Positions 24,488 to 51,313 are shown, numbered from the stretch's first letter. The stretch: DNA of 64,000 bases from an uncultured Acidobacteriota bacterium (GCA_963720545.1 OY970399.1:256001-320000); one strand, 5' to 3'. Translations and numbers: made by a program. Notes: generated by a model not told the origin, from the sequence alone.

Positions 24488-25807
24488 ATGACAAATGGCA
24501 GGAAAGTGGTCGTCCTGGGGCTCGATGGAGTGCCTTACACGCTGATAGAGAAGTTCTGTGCGGAAGGCGTCATGCCGCGCTTCGCGCAGCTGCTGGCCGA
24601 GGGCCAGGCGGCGCCCATGGATACGGTGATGCCGGAAATCTCGTCGACCGCGTGGGCGAGCTTCATGACCGGCACCAACCCCGGCCGGCATGCCGTCTAC
24701 GGCTTCATGGACCTCGATCCCAAGGCCTACAAGCTGCAGTTCAGCAACTTCAACTCTGTCAAGGCGCCGACCATGTGGGACTACATGAGCCGCGCCGGGC
24801 GCAAGTCGGTGGTGCTCAACATCCCCTCGACCTATCCGGCGCGCGACCTGCTCGGCGTGCTGGTGTCGGGGTTCGTCGCCATCGACCTGAAGCGCGCCAC
24901 CTTTCCGAGCCGGGTTGTGCCTTATCTCGAGAACCTCGGCTACAAGCTCGACGTCGACGCCACCACCTTCAAGACCTCGGTCGACGCCTTCATCGCCGAG
25001 CTGTGGGACGCGCTCGAGAAGCGCGAGCAGGCGCTCGAGCACCTGTTCGACACCGAGGAGTGGGAGCTCTACATCGGCGTCGTCACCGAAACCGACCGGC
25101 TGCATCACTATCTGTGGGCGGCGATCGCGTCCGAGGACCATCCGCTGCACGCCTTTTTCAGGGACTACTACCGCAAGGTGGACAAGTTCATCGGCCGCAT
25201 CCGCGACCGGGTGGGCGCCGACACGCTGTTCATGATCATGTCCGACCACGGCTTCTGCGAGATCCAGAAGGAGATCTACCTCAACAACTGGCTGCGCGAG
25301 GAGGGCTACCTGCAGTTCGAGCAGACGCCGCCGAAGGGCCACCAGGACATCGCCGCGACCAGCCGCGCCTTCAACCTCGACCCGGCGCGCATCTACATCC
25401 ACCGCCAGGACGCGTATGCAAAGGGCCCGGTGGCGGCGGGGGACGTGCAAGGACTGATCGACGAGATCGCGGACAAGGCGCGCGCTCTGCAGGTGGACGG
25501 CAGGCCGGTGATCGACCGCATCTACCGCCGTGACGAGCTCTACAGCGGCAATTTCCTCGCCACGGCCCCCGACTTGGTGTTCGTGCCGCACCGCGGCTTC
25601 GACCTCAAGGGCACGCTGTCGCAGCAAACGACCGCCGGCCGCAGCGTGCTCACCGGCATGCACACCCAGGACGATGCGCTGCTGTACGTGAACCGCCCGG
25701 TGACGAAGGCGGGCAAGGCCAGCATCCTCGACCTTGCGCCCACCGTCCTGTCGTGGCTGGGGGTGACGCCGCCGAAGCCCCTCGACGGCGTCGATCTCGT
25801 CGGCTAG
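24488..25807 (+). CDS. Alkaline phosphatase superfamily protein (NPP/phosphodiesterase-like), cytoplasmic
   Basis: GLDG, PEISSTAWASFMTG.NPG.H, TDRLHH, SDHG, GMH; no signal peptide. Confidence 0.88.
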   Translation: MTNGRKVVVLGLDGVPYTLIEKFCAEGVMPRFAQLLAEGQAAPMDTVMPEISSTAWASFMTGTNPGRHAVYGFMDLDPKAYKLQFSNFNSVKAPTMWDYMSRAGRKSVVLNIPSTYPARDLLGVLVSGFVAIDLKRATFPSRVVPYLENLGYKLDVDATTFKTSVDAFIAELWDALEKREQALEHLFDTEEWELYIGVVTETDRLHHYLWAAIASEDHPLHAFFRDYYRKVDKFIGRIRDRVGADTLFMIMSDHGFCEIQKEIYLNNWLREEGYLQFEQTPPKGHQDIAATSRAFNLDPARIYIHRQDAYAKGPVAAGDVQGLIDEIADKARALQVDGRPVIDRIYRRDELYSGNFLATAPDLVFVPHRGFDLKGTLSQQTTAGRSVLTGMHTQDDALLYVNRPVTKAGKASILDLAPTVLSWLGVTPPKPLDGVDLVG

Positions 25808-27793
25808 CTAGCGGCGCCAGCCCGCGTTCAGGAGCCGGGTGCGCGCGTCGCCGATGACGCCGTTCAGCGCGGCGTTGTCGATGTCGATCGGGTAGAGCTC
25901 CAGGAAGCGCGCGCCGTTGCGGATGCCGCGGTCGAGCGCGTCGCGCAGCACCGTCGGCGCCTGGCTGGCGCCGTACGGGTGGCCGCCGTTCATGCGGCCG
26001 GTCGGGTCGTTGCTGACCGACCAGAGCATCTGATAGCCGGCGTCCACCTGCGCCGCGGCCGCCGCCACGTCGAGCGAATGCCAGGTGGTGGAAAGCCCGT
26101 TGTTCTGCGCCATGAACTGGTTGACGCGGACGTTGGCCGCGCCGCCCTGGTCCGGCCCGTACACGTCCTTGCCATAGGCGACGATCTGGTCGGCGATGAT
26201 GCCGTCACCGCCGCTCGAGCTCTGGAAGACGTTGCCGTCGTCGTCGATCGCCGGGAAGTGATTCGGGCCCAGAGCAATCGTCACCTTCTGGAACGGGAAC
26301 GAGTCGGAGAAGGCGCGCATGAGCTGCTGCCAGGCGCCGCGCACCTTGGCGCGCGTGTAGCCGTCGCGGGCGCCGCCGGCATCGCGCACGTCGAGCCAGT
26401 TGTTGACGTCGGGGTCGTCGAAGGGCAGGCCGGCTTCCGCCGACTTGTGCTGGATGCCGGTCACCTTCACCTGCACCAGCGCCTCGCGTGAGGAGTAGCG
26501 GCGGCCGGCCGCTGCGATCAGCGCCTTCCAGCGGTCGAGGTAGACGGGATCCCAGGGCACCGGGATCCTGACGGTTTCGTTGCCGTCGCGGAACGTGAAC
26601 TCGACGGCGCCGTCCGCGAACACCCAGTTGGGCGTTGACACGCCCGCGGAGATGCACAGCGAGACGCGCTTGCCCGCGGCTTCGGCGCGCGCGAAATGGT
26701 CGTCGAGCATGGTCCAGTCGTAGCTGCCGCGCTGCGGCTCGAGCGTGCTCCAGCGGACCCGCAGGCTGACGCCGTCGACGCGCGGGCTGGCGAGCGAGGT
26801 GTCGGACAGCCAGCCGTCGTTGTCGGACAGCGAGTAGATCCCGTTCGGCTGGCGGAACGAGGGCGCCGCGGCCAGGGTCGCCCAGGTGTTCACCACCTCG
26901 GTGCCGCCGTCGGGATCGGTGATCGTCATGGTGATGTTCTTGCGGCCGGGAGCGACCCCCGCGGCGTACGTGTGGGTCGGGCTGAGGCCCGACTGCGGCT
27001 CGGTGCCGTCACCGAAGTTCCACGAAACGTCGAGGTGGGCGAGGTCGGCCGGGCTGGCATCGTCGATGGTGCCGAGCACCTGCATCGGCCGGCCGTTGGC
27101 GGCGACGTACGGCCCGCCGGCGTGGCCGGTGGGCGCCTCGTTGCCGACGTGGATCGAGCGTGTGATCCGGGTCGTGGCGCCGTCCTTGTCGGTCACGTCC
27201 ATCGCGACCGTGTAGGTGCCGCTGTCGGTTGGCGTGAAGATGAAGCGCGGCGAGGTGCTGCCGGCGCGGCCGGTGCTGCTCGGACCGCCGAGCACCACCC
27301 AGTCGCGGCGCAGGTGGCCGCGGTCGTCGCGGCCCGCATCGCTGACAGTGCTGTTGACCGTGATCTCGACGCCCTCGGCGCTCTGCGCGGGTGCGCCCGT
27401 GATGTTGCCCCCGGGTGCGACGTTCTGGATGGTGATGGTGCGCGGCGCGCTTTCGACACGGCGCACCTGGCTGCCGTTGCGCAGCTCGGTGACCCGGAAT
27501 CCCACGGGGTAGTTGCCGTTGTCGAAGAACAGGTTGGCAGGCTCGAGGCTGCGCTTTTCCCAGCCGCCTCCTTGGCCGAAGTTCCACTCGTACACGTAGG
27601 TGTAGTCCCTGCGCTTGCCGTCGACGGTTGCGGTGAAGACCGGGGAGGAGCCCTCACGATAAGGCGCCTGGGTCCGGATCGTGAACGACGCGGTCAGCGC
27701 CGGGTCGGCAGCGGCAGCCGGCACGGAAATGAATGTGGCGCTTGCGAGGAGGCAGACAAAGCACGACAGCATCAGCGAGGAGGGAAGTTTCAC
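25808..27793 (-). CDS. Secreted protein with PKD repeats and a C-terminal glycoside-hydrolase-like barrel
   Basis: Signal peptide; WNFG/WNFGDG PKD repeats; WSTLEPQRGSYDW, PVPWD. Confidence 0.75.
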   Translation of the reverse strand: MKLPSSLMLSCFVCLLASATFISVPAAAADPALTASFTIRTQAPYREGSSPVFTATVDGKRRDYTYVYEWNFGQGGGWEKRSLEPANLFFDNGNYPVGFRVTELRNGSQVRRVESAPRTITIQNVAPGGNITGAPAQSAEGVEITVNSTVSDAGRDDRGHLRRDWVVLGGPSSTGRAGSTSPRFIFTPTDSGTYTVAMDVTDKDGATTRITRSIHVGNEAPTGHAGGPYVAANGRPMQVLGTIDDASPADLAHLDVSWNFGDGTEPQSGLSPTHTYAAGVAPGRKNITMTITDPDGGTEVVNTWATLAAAPSFRQPNGIYSLSDNDGWLSDTSLASPRVDGVSLRVRWSTLEPQRGSYDWTMLDDHFARAEAAGKRVSLCISAGVSTPNWVFADGAVEFTFRDGNETVRIPVPWDPVYLDRWKALIAAAGRRYSSREALVQVKVTGIQHKSAEAGLPFDDPDVNNWLDVRDAGGARDGYTRAKVRGAWQQLMRAFSDSFPFQKVTIALGPNHFPAIDDDGNVFQSSSGGDGIIADQIVAYGKDVYGPDQGGAANVRVNQFMAQNNGLSTTWHSLDVAAAAAQVDAGYQMLWSVSNDPTGRMNGGHPYGASQAPTVLRDALDRGIRNGARFLELYPIDIDNAALNGVIGDARTRLLNAGWRR

Positions 27794-27915
27794 GGCACCA
27801 GCCAGAGGGAATTTTCGAGCACTAGGCGCCAGGCTCCGTTGCCGAAGCCCCGCCGGTACGACGGGAGAGAGAAGCGGAGCCTAGCGGCCTTCTGTTGCCT
27901 TGTTGGTGACCTGCC

Positions 27916-28335
27916 TCACTGGGCAGCGCACTCGAGTGATCTGGGATCGGGCAGCTCGGTGACGTCCACCACGTGAGCCAGCGAATCGCGGCCCCCGGCA
28001 TCATCGGTGATCGTCAACTGCACGTTGTACGAAGCGACGACGCAGCGCAGCCCCGTGTCAGGGAAGGTGTGGCGCACCGTGGCCCCGCCTTCGAGCGGAA
28101 CGGACCCGTCGCCGAAATCCCAGGTGTAGCGGGCGATGCTGCCATCGGGGTCGGTGCTGGCCGAGGCGTTGAACAGCACCGAGGTCTGGCCGGCGATGAT
28201 CGGCGCAACCGGATTCCAGACCCATTGCGCCTGCGGCAGGACGTTCGGATCGGGCTCGGCGGGCGTGCGGCGGTCGCAGCCCGGCTGGACGAGGGCGAGG
28301 CAGAGGATGAATGAAGCGGCGAATGTTTGTTTCAT
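27916..28335 (-). CDS. PKD-domain lipoprotein
   Basis: Lipobox-like QPGC; FNASASTDPDGSIARYTWDFGDG. Confidence 0.8.
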   Translation of the reverse strand: MKQTFAASFILCLALVQPGCDRRTPAEPDPNVLPQAQWVWNPVAPIIAGQTSVLFNASASTDPDGSIARYTWDFGDGSVPLEGGATVRHTFPDTGLRCVVASYNVQLTITDDAGGRDSLAHVVDVTELPDPRSLECAAQ

Positions 28336-28390
28336 GAAGCGCGTTGGGCGCAGTGTCCCTTCTACGGCTCGGCAAGTCAAGACCGGGAAA

Positions 28391-29461
28391 TCACTCCTGG
28401 GCCAGCATCGACGCGGCCGCGCTCATCACGGCGCGCAGCGACGGGTCCTCGATGTCGACCTTGTAGATTTCGAGGTAGCCCATCTTGTAGTCGAGCCCGC
28501 GGTTGACCGCCGAACCGAGCACCGCCGCCTTGTCATTCGGCCGCAGGCCGCACTGGTTCATCCGCTTCGGACCGTCCTGGACGTTCCACAGCATCTGCGC
28601 GCCGGCCTCCCCCGGGAACTGCAGCAACAGCGACCACTGGCCGTCGCCCTTGTCGGGCGGGAACGGCACGCAGCCGGAGAGGTTCTCGCGCCACACCCCG
28701 AACCGCCCGGGATAGGTGGCAGCGCCGTAGCGGGCGATCTCGCCGGCCACGTAGGTCGTGGACTTGCCGCTCACTTCCTTCTCGAACGGGATCGCCGCAA
28801 CCTCCGCCCAGTGGTGGGTGCGGGGCATCGAGGTGAGGAACGCGTCCACCACGGTCTGCATTGCGCTCAGCAGCTTTTCCGGAGTGTAGCCGGCACCCTT
28901 CCACGAGAAGCCGGTCTTGCCGAAGGCCTCGAGCGACCAGCCGTCGGTGACGCTTTCGGTGGAGCCGCGGGTGTAGGCGATCACGGGCTCGTCGGCGTAG
29001 CGCGCGCCGAAGGCACGGATGAAGCGGGTCCAGCGGTCGAGGAACACCGGATCCCAGGGAACCGGGATGGTGCCGTCCTTGGCGATGAAGGAGTTGGCGC
29101 CTTCGCCGTAGAGCCAGGCCGGGGTCCCGGCGATGTAGACCGAGATGCGCTTGCCGGCGGCGCGCGCGGCTCCTATCTGTGCGTCGAGATAGCCCCAGTC
29201 GTATTCGCCCGGCTTCACCTCGAGGGTCGCCCAGCGCGTGCGCACGGCGACGCCTGAGATGTCGGGGTTCTGCAGCAGGTCGTTGTCGGGCGCCCCGTCC
29301 ATCGCCTGCAGCGCGTAGATGCCCGTCGGGAAGGCGACCGCCGGCGCCGACGGTGTCGGGGTCGGCGTGGGGGTTGCTCCAGTCGGCCCACCGCCGCAAC
29401 CGGCCAGCAGGAGGCTCGACAAGATGGCCCCGCAGAGGGCGGGGGAACGGCCGGGGAACAT
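28391..29461 (-). CDS. Lipoprotein with a glycoside-hydrolase-like barrel
   Basis: Lipobox LAGC, PT linker, WATLEVKPGEYDW, PVPWD. Confidence 0.75.
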   Translation of the reverse strand: MFPGRSPALCGAILSSLLLAGCGGGPTGATPTPTPTPSAPAVAFPTGIYALQAMDGAPDNDLLQNPDISGVAVRTRWATLEVKPGEYDWGYLDAQIGAARAAGKRISVYIAGTPAWLYGEGANSFIAKDGTIPVPWDPVFLDRWTRFIRAFGARYADEPVIAYTRGSTESVTDGWSLEAFGKTGFSWKGAGYTPEKLLSAMQTVVDAFLTSMPRTHHWAEVAAIPFEKEVSGKSTTYVAGEIARYGAATYPGRFGVWRENLSGCVPFPPDKGDGQWSLLLQFPGEAGAQMLWNVQDGPKRMNQCGLRPNDKAAVLGSAVNRGLDYKMGYLEIYKVDIEDPSLRAVMSAAASMLAQE

Positions 29462-29482
29462 GCAGACAGTGTACGGCACGTC

Positions 29483-29517
29483 GGGCCCTGGCTTCTGTGA
29501 GATTTGTGCCAGGGCCC
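29483..29517. repeat. 10-bp perfect inverted repeat downstream of cysN (possible terminator or operator; no U-tract)
   Basis: GGGCCCTGGC-15 nt-GCCAGGGCCC. Confidence 0.45.
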
Positions 29518-29536
29518 CGGGCCGCGGTGGGCCTTT

Positions 29537-30697
29537 TTAGGTCACCACCGCGACGCCGACGATCTTGCCCTTCTGCTTGATGGCCATGCGGCCGAGGGAC
29601 GAATGCGACACTTCCGCGACCAGTGGCGTCTCGAGCAGCAGGCGCACCTGGCCGACCTCGCCGATACCCGTCTCCCCGAGGGCCTCGAAGCGGCCCTTCG
29701 ACTCGGCGGTGCCGCACTCGATCATGACGTCAGGCGGCGTCGCCTCGAGGAAGATCACTGGCGCCGTCACTTCCGAGCGAGGGGTCGGCGGCTGCCCGGG
29801 AGGGCACAGCACGGCACCCCGCCCGAGATCGGCAGGATGCGGCTCCATCACCAGGCCGACGTTGTCGCCCTTGCGGGCTTCGGCCACCGGCTCGTTGCCG
29901 ACCATGATCTTCACTACCGTGGCGATCGTGCCGCCGGGCGCGATCGACACGCGGTCGCCCTGGCGCAACGCACCGCTCTCGATCCGGCCCACCACCAGCC
30001 CGTTGCCGCCGTTGCGCTTGTAGACGCCTTGCACCGGCAGGCGCAGCGGTTCGCCGTGGACTTCGTCGTGCGGCTCGATCGACTCCATCGCCTCGAACAG
30101 GGTCGGCCCCTTGTACCAGGGCATCTTGTCCGAACGCGTGACGATGTTGTCGCCGGTCTTCGCTGCGACCGGAATGAACGAGATCTTCTCGTGGCCGCCG
30201 CCGAACACCTCGATGACGCCGGCCTTCATCTTGTCGAAGGCAGCCTGCTCGTAACCGACCGCGTCCATCTTGTTGATGGCCACGATCAGCCGGCCGAGGC
30301 CGAGCCAGCGCGCGAGCCGCAGGTGCTGGCCGGTCTGCGCGCCGATGCCCTCCTTCGCCGAGGCGATGAGGATGCCGGCGTCGGCATGCGACGCGCCGGT
30401 GAGCATGTTCTTGATGAGCGTCTCATGCCCGGGAACGTCGATGCAGTCGTAGAGATACCGCTTGCCCTTGATCTGGGCGTGGATGACGTCGATCGTCATG
30501 CCGTCGCGGCGTTCTTCCTGGAACGCGTCGAGCAGGAACGCGTACTCGAACTCGAGACCCAGGGAGTCGGAAGTGGCCTTGGCCTCGCGGACCTTGTCTT
30601 CCATGACGCTGCCGGTGTCGCAGAGCAGCCGGCCGATGGTCGTTGACTTGCCGTGGTCCTTGTGGCCCAGCAGCGTGATGTGGAGCCGTTTCGCCAT
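29537..30697 (-). CDS. cysN: Sulfate adenylyltransferase subunit 1 (GTPase), without an APS-kinase domain
   Basis: GHKDHGKST, ERRDGMTID, DVPGH, NMLTGAS, NKMD; directly after cysD. Confidence 0.88.
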   Translation of the reverse strand: MAKRLHITLLGHKDHGKSTTIGRLLCDTGSVMEDKVREAKATSDSLGLEFEYAFLLDAFQEERRDGMTIDVIHAQIKGKRYLYDCIDVPGHETLIKNMLTGASHADAGILIASAKEGIGAQTGQHLRLARWLGLGRLIVAINKMDAVGYEQAAFDKMKAGVIEVFGGGHEKISFIPVAAKTGDNIVTRSDKMPWYKGPTLFEAMESIEPHDEVHGEPLRLPVQGVYKRNGGNGLVVGRIESGALRQGDRVSIAPGGTIATVVKIMVGNEPVAEARKGDNVGLVMEPHPADLGRGAVLCPPGQPPTPRSEVTAPVIFLEATPPDVMIECGTAESKGRFEALGETGIGEVGQVRLLLETPLVAEVSHSSLGRMAIKQKGKIVGVAVVT

Positions 30698-31480
30698 TTA
30701 CATGTACCCCAGGGCGCGCAGGCGCTGCATGACGCTTTCCTGCTCCTTGTCCTGCATGCGGCCGGCGCGCTCCGAAGTCTTGGTGGTGCGCAGGTCCTCG
30801 ATGATCTCCTCGATGGTCGACGCGTTCGAGTCGACGCCGACCGTGCACTGCGTGCAGCCGAGGCTGCGGTAGCGGATGCCGTCGCGCGCGAAGTACAACG
30901 GGTTCACCGGGATGTTCTCCTGCTGGATGTAGAGCCACATGTCGAGCTCGGTCCAGTGCAGAAGGGGATGGACGCGGGTGTGCGAGGCCTTCTCCTCCTG
31001 GGAGATGAAGTCCCAGATCTCGGCGGCCTGGTTCTTGTAGTCCCAGCGGAACTCCTCGTCGCGCGGCGAGAAGTAGCGCTCCTTGCCGCGGATGCCGTGC
31101 TCGTCGCGGCGGATCGAGACGAACAGCGCGTCGAACTTGCGCTCGTCGAGCAGCTTCTTCAGCGCGTCCGTCTTGTTGGCGCCGCAGCAGCGGATTCCCG
31201 AAATGTCGTCCTTGATGATGCTCGGCACCGCGAGGACGTCGAGGTTCCATTCCTTGCCGAGCCGCTCGCGCAGCTCGTACGTCTCGGGGAAGTCGATGCC
31301 GTTGTCGATGTGGATCAGGGGAAAGGGCACCTCGCCAAAAAACGCCTTGCGCGCCAGGGCGACGAGCACGGTCGAATCCTTGCCGGTGCTCCACAGGGCC
31401 GCGAGGTTCTTGAACTTCGCGTTCGTCTCCCTGATCACGTAGATGCTGCGTTCTTCCAGTTCCTTCAAATGCTCGCTCAT
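30698..31480 (-). CDS. cysD: Sulfate adenylyltransferase subunit 2
   Basis: WSTGKDS PP-loop, RRDE..R.KER.FSPR, RVHPLLHWTE, YRSLGC. Confidence 0.93.
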   Translation of the reverse strand: MSEHLKELEERSIYVIRETNAKFKNLAALWSTGKDSTVLVALARKAFFGEVPFPLIHIDNGIDFPETYELRERLGKEWNLDVLAVPSIIKDDISGIRCCGANKTDALKKLLDERKFDALFVSIRRDEHGIRGKERYFSPRDEEFRWDYKNQAAEIWDFISQEEKASHTRVHPLLHWTELDMWLYIQQENIPVNPLYFARDGIRYRSLGCTQCTVGVDSNASTIEEIIEDLRTTKTSERAGRMQDKEQESVMQRLRALGYM

Positions 31481-31548
31481 TGCTCTCCTCGTGCTTCTGG
31501 TATCAGGTCAGCTGTTATGAAAGCCGTACATCCCACAATAGAACGCAC

Positions 31549-33036: not shown

Positions 33037-33042
33037 GACTCG

Positions 33043-34788: not shown

Positions 34789-34791
34789 TCC

Positions 34792-40098: not shown

Positions 40099-40100
40099 CG

Positions 40101-43100: not shown

Positions 43101-43139
43101 GACGCCCAGCGAGCGCAGTCCGACGAGGCGCTCCCTCAT
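40101..43139 (-). CDS. Large GT-C (PMT/ArnT-like) membrane glycosyltransferase with two N-terminal jelly-roll (rhamnosidase-N-like) domains
   Basis: YFRKEL...VNG...YDLTPYLKPGKN repeated as LNG...HDITPFVNRGRN; then many TMs, SFGHDE, FGQSEFAARLPA. Confidence 0.75.
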   Translation of the reverse strand: MRERLVGLRSLGVEMVLVLGTALVAAALLFCKAEGLTPHLSPLALRGARWMTTPDQAPVAYFRKELYVDRRVKDAWVTIAAGEANFKLRVNGEIVGESWVLDRNAAGIYDLTPYLKPGKNALALNVRSANYSLPARAVVAGGYRDVAGSETLFSSDSSWSAASRFEAQGNLEIPWYDSRYIQQHETPALGGEAPDPKQLPHLPVDAALFSVATPPWITTPDPSSTSAVFSGVFDVAVGFRTIWLRVACPDGYALALNGVRIFGRVDPAPILEIHDITPFVNRGRNTLDVRVSSPASLPRIALDLIIDRSGTGGDAVSWTPTWTVSASGRARQPAAALPPVEAGAAYGGPAGFAQPLPKKLRVDALPSPWLARAAAGALFFGFGILCLALADWVIMGLILRSVASEVRWTTALRYDALLRLPVLLLFAALWVIGTDERNDPGFAFRPNFTLAAVGVLLALRLLLVAWLALAHRRRAVFAPSIAFVRAAWLRHGLALLCLAPLLVTGAFLRTEKARAASFGHDELSMVRFAQAIDEFGSPIRYVGPLKKRLTTYELLPYPIWLSMKAFGQSEFAARLPAIVFGMLTTLLLYVIGTTTWRPGVGLMAAAVHALSPFSIFWGANAFHPQQAQFFALLTTWLFYLAFGTGPGPVRRLPLAAAAVSFCFMYLSWEGAGVLLPALVLCLLVQRGRHLSWLREPFVWLAACAVSIVVIGQLARRTLDSRAFLAVGSSIAGNALSLGFLATTYNPWAYVQTFLLAPHHLILTLLLIVGLPVAIRNRAVQYYVILLVAVLMTLTNFVVPQSPRYAYFAQPLLLLPACASLFLCADYLRSRAPAVLPGFLRVTVACCVAFAATGVLASSNSLVLRTERLGARAGRMLPDVTPEVGGLDYRSAAEFVAQNRRKGDTVIALMPQALLYYANFAPDYYLQSYTSRLVMYDMNDANPRYMDRFAGSTVLRSEKELAEVLNQHRRAWIMATPAAAFDGSNDAVTLDFVNRSAKVVFETYGMRIYLWER

Positions 43140-44380
43140 GTGCCGCCGAGGCTGCGGAACATCCGGTAGTTCTGCGACGGGTCGAGGCGCCGCGCCGCCT
43201 CGTACGCGAGCCGCGCCTCCTCCAGCCGGTTGAGGCGCATGAAGCTGTCGCCGATGTTGCACTGCAGGTCGGCGCGGATGCGCCGGTCGCGGATCGCGGT
43301 GCTCGCAAAGCGGCCCATCGCGATGCCCTGTTCGTAGCGGCCGACGTCGAAGTAGGCGCGGCTCAGGTAGAACGCCGCCTGCGCCTGCTCGGGATCGAGC
43401 GCGAGGGCCCGCTCCCAGAGACCGATCGCCTGCGGCACGCGCTTCTCCTGGTACGCGGCGCGCGCCTTCTCGATGAGCGCCGAACTGAGTTCGCGGCGGG
43501 CCAGCGAGCGCAGCGGCTCGGATGCGTCCTGCGCCAGCGGCATGTAGACGCCGATGCCCTGGTCGACGTCGCCCATGGCGGTGGCGCGCGCGGCGACGTA
43601 GAAGCGCGCGCTCGGATCGTTGGCGCGGCCGAGGCGGTACTGCGCCTCGCCGATGCGCCGCCAGATCGGCTCGCTGTAGGCCACCTGCGCCGAGTCGCGC
43701 TGCGCGCTCGCATACTGGCGCAGCGCCGCGTCGAAGCGCGCGTAGGTCAGGTCGCGATCGGCGCGCGCCGCCGACAGTTCTCCCGCGAGCGGCTGGCGCA
43801 GCAGCGCCGCGGCGCCGAACAGCGAGACGCCGAGCGTGATTGCCGACCAGGCGCCGGCGGCGAACGGCCGCGCCCACACGCAGGCGAGGAGTGCCAAAAG
43901 GGCGCCGGAAAGGCACAGCCACCAGCCGCGGCCCATGAAGTAGACGCTCGCGGCGACGCGGTCCGTGAGGCCGTCGGTGACGAGGTCGTGCTCGAGCAAC
44001 GGGTCGGCGCCCTTGTTCCAGGGCAGGAACAAGTCGGAGAAGCGGATGATCGCCGAGTACTGGGCGTTGTCGTTGACGAGCGCCCACAGCCGCGCGTCGC
44101 GCAACGACAGGCTCGCGAGCACGAACACGCACAGTGCCAGCGCCAGGCTCGCGGCGACCGCCGTCAGTCGCACCAGGCCGAGCAGGCAGCAGGCACCCGC
44201 GACCACGGCGAGCAGCAAGGCAATCGTCAGGTGCGAGGCCGCGGCGCCGCCGCGCAGCGGCGACTCGATCCAGGCGAGAAAGGCCGACGCCGCAATCAGC
44301 AGCGAGCCGATGGTGCCGACGATGCGGGGAACCGGCCCGCGGCCGGGCTCAGCGGCGCGGGCGAGCGGCTCCGCCGCCAT
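43136..44380 (-). CDS. Membrane protein with C-terminal TPR repeats
   Basis: N-terminal TM helices; AIGLWERALALDP, ARLAYEAARRLDP. Confidence 0.75.
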   Translation of the reverse strand: MAAEPLARAAEPGRGPVPRIVGTIGSLLIAASAFLAWIESPLRGGAAASHLTIALLLAVVAGACCLLGLVRLTAVAASLALALCVFVLASLSLRDARLWALVNDNAQYSAIIRFSDLFLPWNKGADPLLEHDLVTDGLTDRVAASVYFMGRGWWLCLSGALLALLACVWARPFAAGAWSAITLGVSLFGAAALLRQPLAGELSAARADRDLTYARFDAALRQYASAQRDSAQVAYSEPIWRRIGEAQYRLGRANDPSARFYVAARATAMGDVDQGIGVYMPLAQDASEPLRSLARRELSSALIEKARAAYQEKRVPQAIGLWERALALDPEQAQAAFYLSRAYFDVGRYEQGIAMGRFASTAIRDRRIRADLQCNIGDSFMRLNRLEEARLAYEAARRLDPSQNYRMFRSLGGT

Positions 44381-45740
44381 CCCAGTCGCCGTTCAGGATC
44401 TGAAGCTGCGCCCCTGCATAGCGGCGCTCCCACGTGTTCTCGTTCTGCGCCAGCTGCAGTTCGAGCAGCGCGACCTCGGCGCGATTGACGACGTCGACTG
44501 AGGTGAGGCTCGCACCCGCCTGGCCGCGGGCACGCAGCAGCGCCTCGTTTGCCTGTTCCACCTGCGCCTCGAGGAGCTTCGCGTCCTCGCTCAGCTGCTG
44601 GTAGCGCGCGTGCACCTCGCGCAAGCCGCCTTCGAGCAGCAGCCGTTCGTTGCGCGCCTTCGCCTGCTCCTCGCGCTCACCGGCCGCCGCGACCGCGGCC
44701 TGCCGCGACGACAGCCCCGAGTCGAAAACCTTCCAGATGAGCTGGAACGAAACCGAGCCCTCGTCGGCGATCGGCGGGCGGTAGTCGTCGGCAAGCGCGT
44801 AGCGCGCCAGGATCGAGGCGGTGGGCAGGCGGTCCTTGCGCAGGCTCGCCGCCTCCTCGCGCTGCGACTGGGCGCTCAGCTCCGCCGACTTGACCGCCGG
44901 CGATTCGCCGATGCGGGCGAGCAGCTGCTCGATCGGCGGCGGCGGCGCCGGCGCCTGCGCCGGCTCGCGGATGTCGATGGGGCTCAGCATCGACATGCCG
45001 AGCGCGGTCGCGAACTCCTGTTCGGAGCTGCGCTGCGCGAGCTTCGCCTGGGCGACCGCGTGGCGCGCGGTCGCGGCTGCGACCTCGACGACGAGCGCAT
45101 CGCTGCGGGTGATGAGCTTGCGGTCGAGCTGCGCCTGCGCCATGCGCACGTCGGCCTCGCGGAACTGCACTGCCTTCTCCAGCAGCGGCACCTGGTGGCG
45201 GTACTTGAGGACCGCGAAGTAGGCGGTCGCGACGCGCTGCGCGACCTCGCGGCGGGTGACCCCTTCCGCGAGCGCCTTGGCGCCCGCGTCGAGCCGCGCG
45301 GCGTTGGTGTAGCGCGAACCGCCGAGGGTGAGCGCGCCGTGCGTGAACGCCGGGATCTCGAGCACAGCCTCGCCGGTGTAGTACGTGCCGCGCACGAAGC
45401 GGCGCACGCCGAACTGGTCGATGCCGCCGAGGCCGACGAACGGGCTGGTCGGCGAGCCGCGCAGGTAGCCGCTGCTGCCGCCGATGGTGAGCGACGGCGC
45501 CTTTTCCGCCGAGCGCGCGCCAATCGTCGCCTGCGCTGCTTCGGTGCGCGCCTTGGCCGCATCCACTTCGGGATGGCGCGTCAGCGCGTAGGTGATGCAG
45601 CCGGCCAGCTCGCAGGAGAAGTTGCCGGCGGGCGGGGCGGCGGGCGCTTTGGCCTGGGCATGCAGTTGCGGCGCCAGCGCCAGCGCGATGGCGGCGCTAG
45701 CGGCTGACCTCGCTCGGAGCGTTTGTCTCAGTGTCTTCAT
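44349..45740 (-). CDS. TolC-family outer membrane channel
   Basis: Signal peptide; ALTRHPEV, VATAYFAVL, two OEP-like halves (LPT...WKVFDSG). Confidence 0.85.
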   Translation of the reverse strand: MKTLRQTLRARSAASAAIALALAPQLHAQAKAPAAPPAGNFSCELAGCITYALTRHPEVDAAKARTEAAQATIGARSAEKAPSLTIGGSSGYLRGSPTSPFVGLGGIDQFGVRRFVRGTYYTGEAVLEIPAFTHGALTLGGSRYTNAARLDAGAKALAEGVTRREVAQRVATAYFAVLKYRHQVPLLEKAVQFREADVRMAQAQLDRKLITRSDALVVEVAAATARHAVAQAKLAQRSSEQEFATALGMSMLSPIDIREPAQAPAPPPPIEQLLARIGESPAVKSAELSAQSQREEAASLRKDRLPTASILARYALADDYRPPIADEGSVSFQLIWKVFDSGLSSRQAAVAAAGEREEQAKARNERLLLEGGLREVHARYQQLSEDAKLLEAQVEQANEALLRARGQAGASLTSVDVVNRAEVALLELQLAQNENTWERRYAGAQLQILNGDWDGGGAARPRR

Positions 45741-46920
45741 TTCCCAATCTCACCTTGTCCCCATCCCGAAGGTTGAGCTGTCCAACCGTGACGACGCGAT
45801 CCCCTTCGGCGAGGCCGTCGACGATGGCCGTCTGGCCGTCGCCCACACCCCCCACCTTGACACGCCTGAGCCTGGCCAGGCCTTTCTCGACGACGAACAC
45901 CGCGCTCTCCTGCGGACCGGCAGGATAGATGAGCGCAACGCTCGGCACCAGCAGCGCCGTGCTGCGCTCGCGCTGCAGGCGCACGAACGCCGTCAACCCC
46001 AATTTAAGGCGCAAACCGTTGTTTGCGAGCTCGACAAATGCCTGGAAGGTCTTGGTGTCGGCGCTGGTGGTGGGGTCGACGCGCACCACCTTGCCGGTGA
46101 ACTCTTCGTTGAGGAAGGCGCTGAAGGTCACCGTGGCCGGCTGGCCGATGCGGATGATTCCCAGCTGTTCCTCGGAGATCTGCGCGGCCACCAGCACCGG
46201 ATTCATGCGTCCGATGACCATCAGCTCGGCGCCGAGGCCCGGGGTTTCGCCGCGGTTCGTGAGCCGCTGGGTGACGACACCGGTGACCGGCGAGGCGATG
46301 GCACTGTAGGAAAGGGCGCGGCTGGCCTCGGCGCGCTTGGCCCTGGCCGCCTCGAGCGTGGCGGTCGCGGAGTCGAGGGCCTGCTGCGCCTTCTCGACCT
46401 CGGTGACCGCGAGGAAGCCCTGCTTGAAGACGCCCTCGACGCGGTCGCGCTGCACGGCCGCGCGCTCGCGCTCGGCCGAGGCGCGCACCACTTCGGCGGC
46501 GGCGCTGTCGGCAACGGCACGCAGCGACTCGGTCTCGAAGCGCACCAGCACCTGGCCCTGGCGCACCATGTCGCCGAGGTTGGCGCTGATGTCCGAGACG
46601 CGCGCCGAAATGCGCGAGGTCAGGTGCACGTAGTCGGCGGGCACGACTGCGCCGGTTGCGCCCAGCGACTCGTTCAGCTCGCCGCGACGCGCGGCCGTGA
46701 CCATGACCGGGATCGGGTTGCCGGTGCGGCGCGCCATCACCGCGTCGGTGCGCACCATGTGGGGCAGGACCTCCTGCCACAGGTAGCGAGCGCCGAGCGC
46801 ACCGCCTGCCACCAGAAGCAGGGCGCCACCCAGGAAGCCGGTAAGCCGGACAGGACTCATTAGAGGATGCGCGGCGCTTTGCTTCGAGGGCCCACGGCGA
46901 AGGAGCTTATCATCCGACAT
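45697..46920 (-). CDS. Periplasmic adaptor / membrane fusion protein (RND/MacA-type)
   Basis: N-terminal TM, lipoyl halves GDMVRQGQVL and IASPVTGVV, VPSVAL, GLAEGDRVVTVGQ. Confidence 0.9.
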   Translation of the reverse strand: MSDDKLLRRGPSKQSAAHPLMSPVRLTGFLGGALLLVAGGALGARYLWQEVLPHMVRTDAVMARRTGNPIPVMVTAARRGELNESLGATGAVVPADYVHLTSRISARVSDISANLGDMVRQGQVLVRFETESLRAVADSAAAEVVRASAERERAAVQRDRVEGVFKQGFLAVTEVEKAQQALDSATATLEAARAKRAEASRALSYSAIASPVTGVVTQRLTNRGETPGLGAELMVIGRMNPVLVAAQISEEQLGIIRIGQPATVTFSAFLNEEFTGKVVRVDPTTSADTKTFQAFVELANNGLRLKLGLTAFVRLQRERSTALLVPSVALIYPAGPQESAVFVVEKGLARLRRVKVGGVGDGQTAIVDGLAEGDRVVTVGQLNLRDGDKVRLGNEDTETNAPSEVSR

Positions 46921-47094
46921 TGCGCCCTTGCAGGCGCGAAGGTAATGTCGTAGCGGTCGTCACAACCGGTCGGTCGTGAGTGCGTTTACCCTCCGTAAAG
47001 CCCCGCGCCGACAACACTTGATTGCAACTGGGGCCTGATGTTCACGGATAGTGTCCATAGAGGCGGAGCCGCGTTCGACGCTGGGGAGGCACGT

Positions 47095-48399
47095 GTGTCC
47101 GGGGGTTTGTGGAGCACCATCACGCCGCACCTGCGGGTGCGCCACACGCGGAGCCCGGCGCCGCGCGTGGACGCGTGGGTACTCGACCCCCAGTTCCGCC
47201 AGGCGCTCGCGACCGTGCGCAGCCTGGGTGCCGCCGGCCGCTACGTCGGCACTGCCTGCTGCCTGCCGCAGGCCCGCTGGGCACCGGCGGCCGCATCCCG
47301 CTGGTGCGGCGCCAACGCTGTCCTTCCCGACTTCACGGTGGCGCCCGAGAACTATGTGGCGGCGCTCCTGCACCTGCTCGACGAACATCCGGCGCGGGTG
47401 CTGATCCCCGGGCACGACGGCTCGATCGCCACCATCCGCGCGCACCGCGCCGAGTTCGAGAAGCGCACCGTAGTTGCGCTGGCCTCCGAGGAGGCGCTCG
47501 CGATCGCGGGCGACAAGGTGCGCACCCTCGAGATCGCAAAGCGCCTCGGGATCGCGGTGCCGCGCAGCGTGCTGGTGCACGACACCAGCGAAGTGAAGGC
47601 CGCCGTCGAGCACCTCGATTGCCCGGTGGTGGTGAAGCCGACGAGCTCCTGGGCCACGAGCGGCTCGGTGGGCACGCGGCTCTTCAGCATGGGCGCTCGC
47701 AGCCTCGACGAGGCCACGCGCAAGGTGGACAGGATCGTCGCCAGCGGCGGCAGCGCCTTGCTGCAGGAGTGGCTGCCGGGACGACGGGACGCCGTCAGCC
47801 TGTTCGTGGCCAAGGGCGAAGTGACGGCGCGCTTCGCGCAGTCGTCGCGGCGCGAGTATCCGCCGCTCGGCGGCAGCTCGGTCTTCTGCGAGAGCCTGCC
47901 GCTGCAGTTGGACATCGTCGCACCGGCGGAGAAGCTGGTGCGCGAGATCGGCGCCGAGGGCTATTCGATGGTCGAGTTCCGCCGCGACCGCAAAGGCCTG
48001 CCCATCCTCATGGAGGTGAACGCACGGATGGCGGGCTCGGTGCAGCTGGCGCGCTCCTGCGGAGTCGACTTTCCGGCGATGACCTACGCGTGGGCGCTCG
48101 GCGAACCCCTGCCTGCGGCGCGCGCCTATCCCGTAGGCCGACGCCTGCGCTGGCTCGGCGGGGAAGCGCGCGCGCTGCGCGTCATCTTCCGCGACCACGG
48201 CCAGCTCGACGTGCCCGCGCGCGGCGCGGCCCTGGCGGCCGCGATCGGCGACTTCTTCCTGCGTCCGAGCCGCATGGACGTGATCGACCTGCGCGACCCG
48301 CGGCCGGCGATCGTCGAGGCGGGGTACATGCTGGACGGGGCGGTGCGCGTGCTGTTCGGCGCCGAGGTGCCGGGCGAGGCCGAGGGGACTGCGGCATGA
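47095..48399 (+). CDS. ATP-grasp domain protein (carboxylate-amine ligase-like)
   Basis: PVVVKP, LQEWLPG, MVEFR, MEVNAR; GGGGAGG RBS before GTG 47095. Confidence 0.85.
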   Translation: MSGGLWSTITPHLRVRHTRSPAPRVDAWVLDPQFRQALATVRSLGAAGRYVGTACCLPQARWAPAAASRWCGANAVLPDFTVAPENYVAALLHLLDEHPARVLIPGHDGSIATIRAHRAEFEKRTVVALASEEALAIAGDKVRTLEIAKRLGIAVPRSVLVHDTSEVKAAVEHLDCPVVVKPTSSWATSGSVGTRLFSMGARSLDEATRKVDRIVASGGSALLQEWLPGRRDAVSLFVAKGEVTARFAQSSRREYPPLGGSSVFCESLPLQLDIVAPAEKLVREIGAEGYSMVEFRRDRKGLPILMEVNARMAGSVQLARSCGVDFPAMTYAWALGEPLPAARAYPVGRRLRWLGGEARALRVIFRDHGQLDVPARGAALAAAIGDFFLRPSRMDVIDLRDPRPAIVEAGYMLDGAVRVLFGAEVPGEAEGTAA

Positions 48400-49625
48400 G
48401 CGGCGCCCTGGTGGACGTCGCCATCATCGGCGCCGGCCCTTACGGCATGTCGCTGTCCTCGCAGCTGAGCGCTGCGCGCATCGACCACCGCATCTTCGGC
48501 CTGCCGATGCAGACCTGGCGCGACATGCCGCCGGGAATGTTCCTGAAGTCCTTCGGCTTCGCGGTCACGCTCCCGAGCCCCTATCCCGAACGCAATCTGC
48601 CGAGCTTCTGCCGCGCCGAAGGCATCGAGCACTTCGAGCCGGTGCCGACCGCGGCGTTCGTCCGCTACGGCGAGCAGTTCCAGCGCGACCTGGTGCCGCA
48701 TCTCGAGAAGACCATGGTGCTGCGGCTGCTGCGCGACGGCGACTTCGTGCTGGAGCTGGAGAACGGCGAGAGCGTGCGCGCGCGCCGTGTGGCGATCGCG
48801 ACCGGGCTCAACCACCTCGCGTACGTTCCCGAGCAGCTCGCCGCGCTGCCGGCGGGGCGGGTGAGCCATCCGTCGCGCCGGCTCGACTACGCGCTCTATG
48901 CGGACCGCGACGTGGTGGTGGTGGGCCGCGGTCAGTCGGCGATCGAGGCCGCGGTGCTGCTGCACGAACACGGCGCGCGCGTGCGGCTCCTGGGGCGCAA
49001 GCGGCTCGACTGGAGCCAGCGCTTCGACCGCAACCGCTCGCTGCTGCGCCGGCTGATGCGGCCGAACTCGGTGGTGGGAGCCAGCTGGGTCAGCTACCTG
49101 CTGCAACACTATCCGATGCTCGGCTATCACATTCCCGAGCGGCTGCGCCTGTGGCTCACCCGCACCTACCTCGGGCCTGCCGGCGCCTGGTGGGTGCGCG
49201 ACCGCTTCGAGCACCGCGTGGCCTTCGACGACGACGTCGCCGCACTGGCGGCAGCGCCCGAAGGCGACCGCCTGCTCATGACGATCACCACGGCATCCGG
49301 CTCGCGCCGGCGTTTCACGGCCGACCATATCGTCTCCGGCACCGGTTATCGCTTCGAACTCGATCGCCTGCCGTACATGGACCCGGCGCTGCGCGGCTCC
49401 CTGCGGCGGATCGCGCTCGCGCCGGCGCTCGACCGCGACTGCCAGTCGTCGGTGCCCGGGCTCTACTTCATGGGTCCGCTCGGCGCACCGACTTTCGGAC
49501 CGATGCAGCGCTTCGTCGCCGGCTCGCGCTTCGCGACACCCACGGTCTTCCGGCACATCAAGGCCGCGCTTCGGGCAGCCGCCTCGGTCCCGGCCACGCG
49601 CCGCAGCGAGCGCGCCACCCAATGA
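48396..49625 (+). CDS. FAD/NAD(P)-dependent oxidoreductase (class B flavoprotein-like)
   Basis: IIGAGPYG, MPPGMFLKS, IATG, VVGRGQSAIE, GTGYR, SSVPGLYF; ATGA coupling. Confidence 0.85.
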   Translation: MSGALVDVAIIGAGPYGMSLSSQLSAARIDHRIFGLPMQTWRDMPPGMFLKSFGFAVTLPSPYPERNLPSFCRAEGIEHFEPVPTAAFVRYGEQFQRDLVPHLEKTMVLRLLRDGDFVLELENGESVRARRVAIATGLNHLAYVPEQLAALPAGRVSHPSRRLDYALYADRDVVVVGRGQSAIEAAVLLHEHGARVRLLGRKRLDWSQRFDRNRSLLRRLMRPNSVVGASWVSYLLQHYPMLGYHIPERLRLWLTRTYLGPAGAWWVRDRFEHRVAFDDDVAALAAAPEGDRLLMTITTASGSRRRFTADHIVSGTGYRFELDRLPYMDPALRGSLRRIALAPALDRDCQSSVPGLYFMGPLGAPTFGPMQRFVAGSRFATPTVFRHIKAALRAAASVPATRRSERATQ

Positions 49626-51313
49626 CCAAGCCGCCGCGGGTGCTGATCGTCGGGGTGGATGGCGCCACCTTCGACAACATCAGGCCGTGGGCCGAGGCGG
49701 GGCTGCTGCCGAACTTCAGGAAATTCCTCGACCAGGGCGCCGCGGGCACGCTCCGCTCCACCATCCCGCCGCTGACGGCGCCGGCGTGGACTTCGTTCAT
49801 GACCGGCAAGAACCCGGGCAAGCACGGGCTCTACAACTTCGTCGAGCGCAAGCAGGACAGCTACGAGATCCGCTACTCGAACGCGCGCACCCGCCATGCG
49901 AGCACGCTCTGGCAGATCCTCAGCGACGCCGCGCTGCGCGTCGGCGTGCTCAACGTGCCGATGACCTATCCGCCCGAGGCGGTCAACGGCTACATGATCT
50001 CCGGACTGGACGCGCCGGAGGACGGACCGGCCGCGGTCTATCCGCGTGAGCTCCACGCCGAACTGAAGGAGCGCTTCGGTCCGATCAACCGCCAGTACCG
50101 CTACCTCGGCAACCTCACCGACGACCACCGCAAGAGCGTCCTCGACACGCTCGAGGAGATCGACGGCCACTACCACCGCGTCGCCGACTACCTGCTCGAG
50201 GCGCACCCGGTGGACGTCGCGATGGTCGTGTGGACCTCGAGCGACACGGTGCAGCATTTTTTCTACCACTACCTCGACCGCTCGCACCCGCAGTACGACG
50301 CGGCGGGCGCCGAGCGCTACGGCGACGCGGTGCTGCGCACCCACCAGCGCATCGACGCCATCATCGGCGCGCTGGCGCAGCGGCTCGACGGCGACGGCAC
50401 GCTCATCGTCATGTCCGACCACGGCTTCCGCGGCACCAGCGGCAGGCTGTTGCGCCTCAACCGCTTCCTCGAGGAACTCGGGCTCATGAAGCGCAAGGCG
50501 CCGGCGACCCAGCCGGTGGCGCCGGTGTTCGGGGTCGTCGACCGGCTGCTGCGACGGCACCTCACCTCGCGCAACAAGGAGCGGCTCGCCGCCTGGTTCC
50601 CGCGCCTGCGCGCCAAATGGGAATCGCAGTCGCGCGGCCTGCACGGCGTCGACTGGGGCGCGACCAAGGCGTTCGCCAGCGACCTCGAGATCTTTCCGCC
50701 GCGCGTCTGGATCAACCAGCAGGGCGTCTTCCCCTCGGGAATCGTCGCCGCCGCCGACAAGGAGCCGCTCCTCGACTTCATCGTCGAGAAGCTCTACACG
50801 CTCAAGGACCCGCTCACCGGCAGGCAACTGATCGAGAAAGTCTGGCGCAAGGAAGAGATCTACCACGGCGACGAGCTCGATCGCGCGCCCGACCTGACCA
50901 TCGGCTGCTGGGACGGCATCAGCTTCGTCGGCGCCGGCACCCGCCGCGGCACCGACACCGTCTCGATCGTGAGCGGCGAGCCCGGCGCCGGCGAATGGAC
51001 CGGGGCGCACGCGATGCAGGGAATCGTGGGCTTCCTCGGCAAGGCGTTCCGCCCGACGGCCCTGCAGGGAGCCGACATCGTCGACGTGGTGCCGACAGTG
51101 CTGCACCTGCTCGGCCTCGAGATTCCCGAGGACATCGATGGCCGGGTCCTCGACGAGGCGTTCACCGACGAGTTTCGCCAGGTGCGCGGCGCTCCGCGGC
51201 GCGGCAGCCCCCGGGGCGGCGACGCCACCGCCGCGCGCGAGGCCGAAACCTACACGGACGACGAGAGCGAGAAGGTGGCCGAGCGCCTGCGCGGCCTCGG
51301 CTACACCGAGTAG
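49622..51313 (+). CDS. Alkaline phosphatase superfamily protein with C-terminal RLxxLGY tail (close paralog of 34792-36504)
   Basis: GVDG, PPLTAPAWTSFMTGKNPGKHG, SDTVQH, SDHG, GAH; ends ERLRGLGYTE. Confidence 0.88.
   Translation: MTKPPRVLIVGVDGATFDNIRPWAEAGLLPNFRKFLDQGAAGTLRSTIPPLTAPAWTSFMTGKNPGKHGLYNFVERKQDSYEIRYSNARTRHASTLWQILSDAALRVGVLNVPMTYPPEAVNGYMISGLDAPEDGPAAVYPRELHAELKERFGPINRQYRYLGNLTDDHRKSVLDTLEEIDGHYHRVADYLLEAHPVDVAMVVWTSSDTVQHFFYHYLDRSHPQYDAAGAERYGDAVLRTHQRIDAIIGALAQRLDGDGTLIVMSDHGFRGTSGRLLRLNRFLEELGLMKRKAPATQPVAPVFGVVDRLLRRHLTSRNKERLAAWFPRLRAKWESQSRGLHGVDWGATKAFASDLEIFPPRVWINQQGVFPSGIVAAADKEPLLDFIVEKLYTLKDPLTGRQLIEKVWRKEEIYHGDELDRAPDLTIGCWDGISFVGAGTRRGTDTVSIVSGEPGAGEWTGAHAMQGIVGFLGKAFRPTALQGADIVDVVPTVLHLLGLEIPEDIDGRVLDEAFTDEFRQVRGAPRRGSPRGGDATAAREAETYTDDESEKVAERLRGLGYTE

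Follow-up and report, generated by a model that had tools for sequence, protein, structure and literature searches.

The DNA analysed here (the window, 64,000 nucleotides in length) stems from an uncultured Acidobacteriota bacterium (GCA_963720545.1 OY970399.1:256001-320000; G000:C1:256001-320000 of the host genome), whose genome is a single contig of 4,089,372 bases with approximately 69% G+C and is 94.8% complete by markers. Between positions 24488 and 51313 the window carries a surface-glycan locus of approximately 27 kb with cysD, the gene of a short CysN-like GTPase and genes for four PF01663 paralogs of the alkaline phosphatase (AP) superfamily, designated AP1 to AP4, and it is this combination, a possible glycan-sulfation module, that is treated in the following. 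Because the G+C content is high, genes were called from third-position G+C (GC3) and frame plots, and they were named from Pfam and NCBIfam matches. The minus strand carries fifteen closely spaced genes between 46920 and 25808, read in the order periplasmic adaptor (MFP), TolC-like outer membrane factor (OEP), membrane protein with TPR repeats, a glycosyltransferase (GT) of the GT-C type with approximately 1000 amino acids (aa), secreted GH42-like protein (GH, glycoside hydrolase), GT2, GT4, AP3, AP2, the flippase Wzx, CysD, the 386-aa GTPase, a lipoprotein-like GH-like paralog, a PKD protein and a PKD plus GH-like protein. AP1, on the plus strand, is convergent with the 3' end of this run, and a divergent unit of three genes (ATP-grasp enzyme, flavin oxidoreductase, AP4) begins at 47038. 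The features are as follows:

24488..25807, plus strand: AP1, short tail-less PF01663 enzyme, 439 aa, predicted to be cytoplasmic (Pfam, 162 bits)
25808..27793, minus strand: secreted PKD plus GH42-like protein, 661 aa (Pfam PKD and Glyco_hydro_42; signal-like N-terminus)
27916..28380, minus strand: small PKD-domain protein (Pfam PKD_4, 65.7 bits)
28391..29479, minus strand: lipoprotein-like protein, paralog of two GH-like proteins (lipobox-like LLLAGC; tblastn)
29537..30697, minus strand: CysN/EF-1alpha-like GTPase, 386 aa (GTP_EFTU, 139 bits)
30698..31480, minus strand: CysD, ATP sulfurylase small subunit (NF003587, 296 bits)
31549..33036, minus strand: Wzx/MOP flippase (Polysacc_synt, 76.8 bits; 11 transmembrane (TM)-like segments)
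33043..34788, minus strand: AP2, long PF01663 enzyme, 581 aa, LGY tail (Pfam, 131.7 bits)
34792..36504, minus strand: AP3, long PF01663 enzyme, 570 aa, LGY tail (Pfam, 154.6 bits)
36656..37864, minus strand: GT4 glycosyltransferase (Pfam)
37854..38765, minus strand: GT2 glycosyltransferase, ArnC/polyprenyl-phosphate-sugar-synthase-like (Glycos_transf_2, 97.5 bits)
38851..40098, minus strand: secreted GH42-like protein, 415 aa (frame plot, Pfam, signal-like N-terminus)
40101..43130, minus strand: GT-C (PMT_2) membrane glycosyltransferase, start approximate (PMT_2, 52.9 bits; frame plot)
43136..44380, minus strand: membrane protein with C-terminal TPR repeats (Pfam)
44349..45740, minus strand: TolC-like outer membrane factor (OEP, 89.4 bits)
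45697..46920, minus strand: periplasmic adaptor (MFP), first gene of the minus-strand run (HlyD_D23; TIGR01730, 206 bits)
47038..48399, plus strand: ATP-grasp enzyme, first gene of the divergent unit (Pfam, NCBIfam)
48411..49625, plus strand: flavin-dependent oxidoreductase, Lys/Orn N-monooxygenase-like (Pfam)
49622..51313, plus strand: AP4, long PF01663 enzyme, LGY tail, 57% identical to AP3 (Pfam, 131.9 bits)

The genes are intact, with host-like GC3 values of 0.86-0.94. Neither a hydrophobic N-terminus nor a TM segment was seen in GT2, GT4, CysD, the GTPase or AP1-4, and the N-termini of the GH-like and PKD proteins are signal-like. The GT-C protein has an N-terminal sugar-binding-like domain and about 12 TM-like segments, and the top NCBIfam match of GT2 is ArnC with 90 bits, which is under cut-off. 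Three secreted GH-like paralogs are encoded; the protein of 28391..29479, for which neither Pfam nor NCBIfam gave a family, is paralogous by tblastn to 25865-26842 and 39397-39975. Scanning for promoters and terminators at either end of the operon returned nothing, and neither an Rfam match nor a tRNA was found in the window. Pieces near-identical to the locus occur in contigs of one soil RNA library (e.g., 31286-31502 with 0 differences), a weak hint of expression as DNA carry-over is not excluded and levels are not given.

CysD, the CysN-like GTPase and the AP-fold enzymes

CysD matched NF003587 with 296.3 bits (cut-off 195) and aligned with 199 bits to CysD of P. syringae (1ZUN) in two stretches spanning residues 3-259, a likeness that takes in the C-terminal TSERxGR...GY segment; the narrower model TIGR02039 was not reached (227.8 against 396.6 bits), and neither was NF009214. 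The PP-loop residues G33, K34, D35 and S36 are invariant in alignment A4, as is the C-terminal tail discussed below, and by these sequence comparisons the window CysD is genuine. The two genes follow each other without a gap, cysD having its stop at 30698 and the GTPase gene its start at 30697. The GTPase has the G1 motif GHKDHGKST, and DVPGH and NKMD are kept in alignment A3; it scored 238.6 bits with the CysN model TIGR02034 (cut-off 336.1) and 310.6 bits with EF-1alpha models, also under cut-off. The CysN and EF-1alpha models reach only to about residue 320 of its 386 residues, the last 66 forming a short, divergent and unassigned C-terminal part, and no domain of the adenosine 5'-phosphosulfate (APS) kinase family PF01583 is present.

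All four AP proteins pass PF01663, the NPP/PhnA-like family, with 131.7-162 bits against a cut-off of 23. The column of the nucleophile reads S/S/T/T, within PEISS (AP1, Ser52), PPMSP, PPITA and PPLTA, and D13, D203, H207, D253, H254 and H392 (AP1 numbering) are invariant in AP1-4 as well as among 11 homologs of AP1. In each of the four paralogs the first metal-binding Asp is one of residues 1-20, no hydrophobic N-terminus, TM-like segment or [CS]xPxR motif was found in any of them, and PF00884 was matched by AP3 and AP4 only, with 23.1 and 19.6 bits under its cut-off of 25. A preliminary description of the same DNA had listed GT2, GT4, Wzx, GT-C, OEP/MFP, GH-like proteins, cysD and a cysN-like gene lacking a fused CysC domain, and four AP paralogs without signal peptide or CxPxR motif but with a Ser/Thr nucleophile and intact metal ligands; Pfam, NCBIfam and the alignments agree with it on all of these. 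Also in agreement, neither cysC nor cysH nor a P-loop sulfotransferase using 3'-phosphoadenosine 5'-phosphosulfate (PAPS) was matched in the window. The exception was the start of AP4, which had been placed at 49151 but lies near 49622, overlapping the stop of the flavin oxidoreductase gene directly upstream (48411-49625).

Profile comparison showed that the paralogs are of two types which align end to end: a short, tail-less one (AP1) and a long one (AP2-4) with an additional insert of about 45 residues, a linker and a tail. The AlphaFold2 (AF2) model of AP1 (predicted local distance difference test, pLDDT, 86) has phosphonoacetate hydrolase (PhnA), ENPP1 and Xanthomonas NPP as nearest folds (Foldseek E ~1e-14, TM-score ~0.6, identity 15-17%), and the model of AP3 (pLDDT 83) is confident in its core and low in the insert (299-345) and linker (540-550), with a helix at 553-565. 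Sequence searches of the PDB matched AP1 to PhnA only (E=1.4e-4) and gave no match for AP3, and the ESM Atlas returned only clusters named 'alkaline phosphatase family protein'. AP1-4 thus resemble the NPP/PhnA branch (Xanthomonas NPP 2GSN, ENPP1, PhnA 1EI6/3SZY) in fold, Ser/Thr nucleophile and two-metal ligands, whereas they differ in their low identity, cytoplasmic location and linkage to sulfate activation and, in the long type, in the 45-residue insert and a portable C-terminal tail. The clustering of these genes is not due to chance, since four of the five members of this PF01663 subfamily in the host genome fall within 27 kb of 4.09 Mb. A search for fused AP1 forms of at least 770 aa gave two matches, both with PF01663 only.

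Sulfate genes in the host genome and beside AP1 homologs

Family searches over six-frame translations of the host genome gave no match for PF01583 (APS kinase; the control was positive in 11 of 14 genomes), PF01747 (Sat), PF01077 (sulfite reductase) or the sulfotransferase family PF00685; the equally empty result for PF03567 is uninformative, as its control was positive nowhere. PF01507, which covers PAPS reductase and CysD, matched solely the cysD of the locus, hence no cysH is present, and an APS kinase used as tblastn query gave nothing but a P-loop match of 34 residues (E=0.005). Apart from the locus, the genome thus encodes no enzyme known to make or use APS, and because PF01583, PF01747 and PF01077 are without match and PF01507 finds cysD alone, CysDN would have no other job in the host. 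Among 40 relatives, 32 match PF01583 (29 at E<=1e-50), mostly in open reading frames (ORFs) of 550-650 aa, some of them near CysH-like genes. Since APS kinase, Sat, CysH and sulfite reductase are missing from a genome most of whose relatives have APS kinase, the CysDN of the locus is not assimilatory; as judged from these searches, the usual route to PAPS has been lost in the host lineage, and sulfate-activating genes are left only in the glycan locus. No other complete genome in this group of relatives is as small as that of the host. The best CysD and AP1 in these 40 relatives are 44% and 32% identical, other AP1 matches covering the C-terminal half only, and the nearest CysD proteins are those of Nitrospirota with 82-84% identity, so that the module was probably acquired as a unit. 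One relative, a member of the same family, has two tandem long AP genes with LGY tail (L117, G063:C68:929-4822), and no close AP1 or CysD was found there.

A pattern scan for AP1 in 185,579 species genomes yielded 544 confirmed relatives; the 80 best loci were kept and analysed with a crude ORF caller, clustering and Pfam searches on representatives. In at least 50 of these 80 loci a sulfate gene lies no more than two ORFs from an AP ORF, namely a CysD-like gene of the PAPS_reduct family (29 loci), an APS kinase gene (14), a gene for a 226-aa P-loop sulfotransferase with a PRSGTS loop (7) or a CysN-like gene (2); 50 is an undercount, as several loci end at the AP gene or are miscalled. In 30 of the 80 loci no sulfate gene was seen at this distance. 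Many of the loci are exosortase/PEP-CTERM polysaccharide loci, and no other conserved neighbour cluster is common to more than 8 of the 80. Tandem AP paralogs commonly follow an APS kinase (L013, L015, L030, L036), an arrangement that looks like a donor enzyme and then acceptor-specific transferases. In a tree of AP1 homologs the partner type is not monophyletic. Locus L023, of the CysD-like/AP1 kind, also contains a homolog (33%) of the ATP-grasp enzyme. An ORF of 601 aa with a PRSGTS-loop sulfotransferase and an AP1-type domain, present in one of the 80 loci (L043:9419-11224), was not counted as a fusion because the first strand and the Asp ligand are missing, which may reflect a deletion or an assembly error rather than a real fusion.

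The reverse search started from the GTPase. A scan of metagenome contigs with the single protein gave 118 pattern matches, none of them confirmed, and was rerun with alignment A3, by which 23 loci were found, four with a CysD of at least 82% identity. Two of these four (L090, L091) show the order CysD, CysN-like GTPase, AP1, and the contigs of the other two stop at the GTPase gene. Once L003 and L006 are added, the triad is present in all four informative loci. L090 is a complete exopolysaccharide (EPS) locus, and neither a kinase nor a sulfotransferase gene occurs within 10 kb on either side. In the more distant clade (CysD 59-65%) AP genes are nearby in 2 of 19 loci, among them L095, which echoes the window with TauE, CysD, GTPase, GT4, a PF01663 protein and a PMT_2 GT-C. 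Genomic co-occurrence with cysDN, which the preliminary description had proposed as a check, was thus borne out and extended to APS kinase and sulfotransferase genes. Of the cysC and the sulfotransferase in trans that it had named as refuting its proposal, cysC was not found genome-wide, and the Sulfotransfer families gave one PF13469 match in trans.

Three observations in the remainder of the window are recorded here: a type III polyketide synthase gene (chalcone/stilbene synthase-like) adjoins a methyltransferase gene at 5030-6815 (minus strand); a 1024-aa ORF at 60102-63176 (plus strand) has APH-type phosphotransferase, peptidase M23 and class-III aminotransferase domains; and a formate-tetrahydrofolate ligase frame at 51317-54246 (minus strand; PF01268, aa 234-780) extends over the 3' end of the frame for an MFS transporter gene, for which reason the true ligase start must be far later than the first start codon.

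The RLxxLGY tail

AP2-4 end in a linker of low conservation followed by E-x-V-x-x-R-L-x-x-L-G-Y-x-E, an acidic tail with RLxxLGY at its core, and CysD ends in VMQRLRALGYM. In the 80 loci the tail was found on 32 of 32 CysD-like ORFs, 12 of 16 AP-adjacent APS kinases, 7 of 7 small sulfotransferases, 28 of 103 AP ORFs and two other ORFs. It was absent from all 20 APS kinases that, in genomes of the same kinds, are encoded at a distance from AP genes; three of these 20 adjoin a tailed sulfotransferase. In APS kinases the tail resembles the kinase's own last helix, and in the tailed kinases a further copy comes after this helix. A tree of 105 AP sequences (101 of the 103 cluster ORFs, with lengths of 380-720 aa, plus AP1-4) united all 31 tailed APs in one clade (support 0.95) without a tail-less member; the 74 tail-less ones, AP1 included, have a median length of 447 aa. 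A role of the tail as structural latch of the AP fold was rejected, since CysD-like proteins, APS kinases and P-loop proteins terminate in it as well.

Only 7 of the 19,296 host ORFs with at least 100 aa end in the tail, namely CysD, AP2-4 and three PF00884 proteins. The latter (G000:C1:1626909-1629359(-), 1767774-1769516(-) and 2603295-2605859(-); L112-L114) score about 151 bits, have no C/SxPxR in the domain and end in RL+ALGY, and by their sequence they may belong to the same sulfate protein group. In ten Nitrospirota loci (L007, L009, L011, L014, L031-L033, L037, L043, L044) a pair of tailed enzyme and AP1 sits between genes for a PrsK-like 7TM histidine kinase and a PrsR-like sigma-54 regulator, both of PEP-CTERM loci, the tailed partner being interchangeably CysD-like, APS kinase or sulfotransferase.

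The tail probably holds makers and users of APS together. Its partner in Nitrospirota is not CysN, because none of five genomes with a CysD-like/AP1 pair has a CysN over cut-off, and no alternative receptor (e.g., a TPR protein) stands out among the neighbours in the 80 loci; tail-less AP1 is the best candidate for its docking partner. Prediction of an AP1+CysD complex gave a score of 0.54, the best of three controls reaching 0.00; the runs agreed in at least 60% of contacts, with a partner pLDDT of at least 70. In the benchmark 116 of 157 solved complexes passed the mark, along with 2 of 215 mismatched pairs; among the passing scores of up to 0.60 were only 18 of the 157 solved complexes and both of the passing mismatches. 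The model thus lends weak support to a binding of CysD by AP1. We know of no like complex.

Proposed function and competing explanations

Gene content, intact active sites, the lack of any further known APS-making or APS-using enzyme in the genome, linkage across genomes and the distribution of the tail were all observed directly, and from the sequence comparisons the module is real and non-random. Sulfuryl transfer, APS as donor, the covalent intermediate, the acceptor and the docking we infer. Our leading interpretation, tentative and a little short of an even chance, is that the locus is a dedicated glycan-sulfation module in which AP-fold enzymes transfer sulfate, in this organism from APS. 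Following this, CysD and the short CysN-like GTPase would form APS in the cytoplasm, where AP1 and AP2-4 would move the sulfuryl group to a sugar, likely via a sulfo-Ser/Thr enzyme at the two-metal site. The acceptor sugar would probably still be on a lipid carrier or nucleotide, plausibly on the polyprenyl-phosphate carrier served by the ArnC-like GT2, before Wzx and GT-C act, and each of the long paralogs AP2-4 could serve a different position of the glycan. Wzx would then flip the sulfated product, and GT-C and the secreted GH-like proteins would complete the glycan outside the cytoplasm. The RLxxLGY tail on CysD and AP2-4 would keep producers and consumers of scarce APS together, with AP1 as the docking site. 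A more far-reaching version, which we regard as rather doubtful, is a kinase-free machine with AP1 as a hub that binds AP2-4 and the tail of a donor enzyme, be it CysD as here or, elsewhere, APS kinase or a small sulfotransferase; APS would be passed on unreleased as direct sulfuryl donor via sulfo-Ser/Thr, which would constitute a second, AP-fold class of sulfotransferases with APS instead of PAPS as donor.

Several points weigh against the proposed sulfate transfer from APS. Sequence alone cannot separate a sulfuryl from a phosphoryl transferase, and the nearest folds attack phosphorus, so by analogy an NPP-like attack on APS would release sulfate and not transfer it. A shared housekeeping role would agree equally well with a single AP1 in each system. 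Moreover, the AP1 family normally lives with PAPS: an APS kinase match was obtained in 48 of the 49 further genomes with AP1, in 40 of them at E<=1e-30, in 14-16 loci an APS kinase directly adjoins AP1, and no residue column divides the 28 CysD-linked from the 23 kinase- or sulfotransferase-linked AP1 homologs at the 80% level. The use of APS would therefore be special to the host genome, and PAPS-independence is not a property of the family, so that the PAPS-independent route put forward in the preliminary description is not supported in that form. The complex prediction for AP1 and CysD was only a weak pass. Finally, the host genome does encode one Sulfotransfer_3-like ORF (PF13469, 38.5 bits, SHSGST loop) at C1:~3179043-3181403 (L001:1342-3702), which is 2.9 Mb from the locus and adjoins a Wzy_C gene. 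GC3 of its 786-aa frame dips at aa 301-400, and it may be two genes.

This ORF is central to the best surviving alternative, which we nevertheless consider unlikely, namely that it is the actual sulfotransferase, acting in trans, and that the AP enzymes, AP1 above all, are accessory sulfonucleotide hydrolases, i.e., phosphatases of 3'-phosphoadenosine 5'-phosphate (PAP) or AMP, pyrophosphatases or APS/PAPS hydrolases that pull or tidy sulfate activation. Nucleotide pyrophosphatases typically have the NPP/PhnA fold, most systems contain a single AP1, adjoining APS kinase or the PRSGTS-loop sulfotransferase, and the accessible part of a study on methanogens describes a non-canonical PAP phosphatase encoded beside ATP sulfurylase and APS kinase (PMC10322725). 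CysQ was matched over cut-off in just 5 of 34 genomes, but this test is non-discriminating as only 3 of 14 control genomes were over cut-off. Furthermore, a host without APS kinase has neither PAPS nor PAP, hydrolysis of APS would be futile, its synthesis is already driven by the GTPase, and three to four tandem paralogs per locus are poorly explained by a single by-product.

It is distinctly unlikely, in our estimation, that the AP proteins are instead LtaS/EptA/OpgB-like phosphoester transferases or hydrolases by which a phosphate-linked decoration of the glycan is added or trimmed, or nucleotide-sugar processors, with CysDN feeding a separate step. Several AP-superfamily transferases use a Ser/Thr phospho-intermediate, the nearest folds are phosphonate and phosphodiester hydrolases, and in 30 of the 80 loci a sulfate gene is missing within two ORFs. 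However, the tail common to CysD, APS kinases and small sulfotransferases places the long APs in the sulfate group, the CysD-CysN-like-AP1 triads occur without another sulfate user nearby, and AP1-4 have no LtaS/EptA-like membrane domain. LtaS, EptA and OpgB resemble the sulfate transfer proposed here in that an activated donor gives up a group to a Ser/Thr nucleophile, from which a glycan or lipid receives it, whereas they are membrane-anchored, periplasmic-facing PF00884 enzymes with lipid donors and AP1-4 are without TM segment.

Very unlikely is a PAPS-dependent module that, orphaned in the host by the missing kinase, is silent or non-functional. This would agree with the APS kinase matches in nearly all other AP1-bearing genomes and in 32 of 40 relatives and with the small size of the host genome, but its genes are intact with host-like GC3 and all catalytic residues, the 15 genes are closely packed on one strand, and the soil RNA contigs, weak as this hint is, point to expression. 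That the divergent CysD/CysN-like pair adenylates a non-sulfate substrate for the AP enzymes, e.g., another oxyanion, is hardly credible: the GTPase does score higher with EF-1alpha than with CysN, under every cut-off, CysD is under the narrow TIGR02039 cut-off, and the Nitrospirota CysD-like partners are only ~32-41% identical in genomes without CysN over cut-off (0 of 5), but CysD matches a solved CysD over its whole length, passes NF003587, and elsewhere its place next to AP1 is taken by APS kinases and sulfotransferases.

As for known systems, CysDN(C)/NodPQ complexes feed PAPS-dependent P-loop sulfotransferases of the NodH type, and to our knowledge all characterised bacterial and eukaryotic carbohydrate sulfotransferases are P-loop enzymes needing PAPS. 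The locus has in common with CysDN(C)/NodPQ a CysD with a translationally coupled GTPase and the setting of glycan modification. In contrast, its GTPase is short and EF-1alpha-like, the host genome has no CysC domain or gene, and AP-fold enzymes occupy the place at or near cysN instead of a kinase and a P-loop sulfotransferase. Literature searches found no description of sulfotransferases of the PF01663 type or of such a module. The closest published case, by analogy, is that of Agl30 (VNG1056C) and Agl31 (VNG1057C) from Halobacterium salinarum, identified as N-glycan sulfotransferases by deletion and heterologous expression in a report whose available text names no donor and mentions neither APS nor PAPS (PMC11980604). 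Like AP1-4, they belong to the AP superfamily according to that text and are encoded in a glycosylation cluster. One Agl protein is soluble, and the Agl paralogs, necessary and sufficient for sugar sulfation, serve different glycan positions. However, they are archaeal and sulfatase-like, with sulfatases of glycosaminoglycans (GAG) and of ulvan as best folds, whereas AP1-4 are bacterial and NPP/PhnA-like (PF01663), and the same text reports neither a CysDN link nor a tail for them, whereas the AP1-4 family is tied to CysDN or APS kinase and has tailed and tail-less types.

If the proposed sulfate transfer holds true, an AP-fold family using APS or PAPS would constitute a second class of sulfotransferases, possibly with a second donor. 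It would explain many polysaccharide loci of Nitrospirota, Acidobacteriota, Thermodesulfobacteriota and others that have sulfate activation and no sulfotransferase, and it would bear on the non-canonical sulfotransferase proposed for methanogens in the accessible part of the study cited above (PMC10322725). The tail would serve as a practical marker for finding members of the system. Moreover, the host offers a natural test case: since it lacks APS kinase, Sat, CysH and sulfite reductase, any glycan sulfate in this bacterium must come via CysDN without PAPS.

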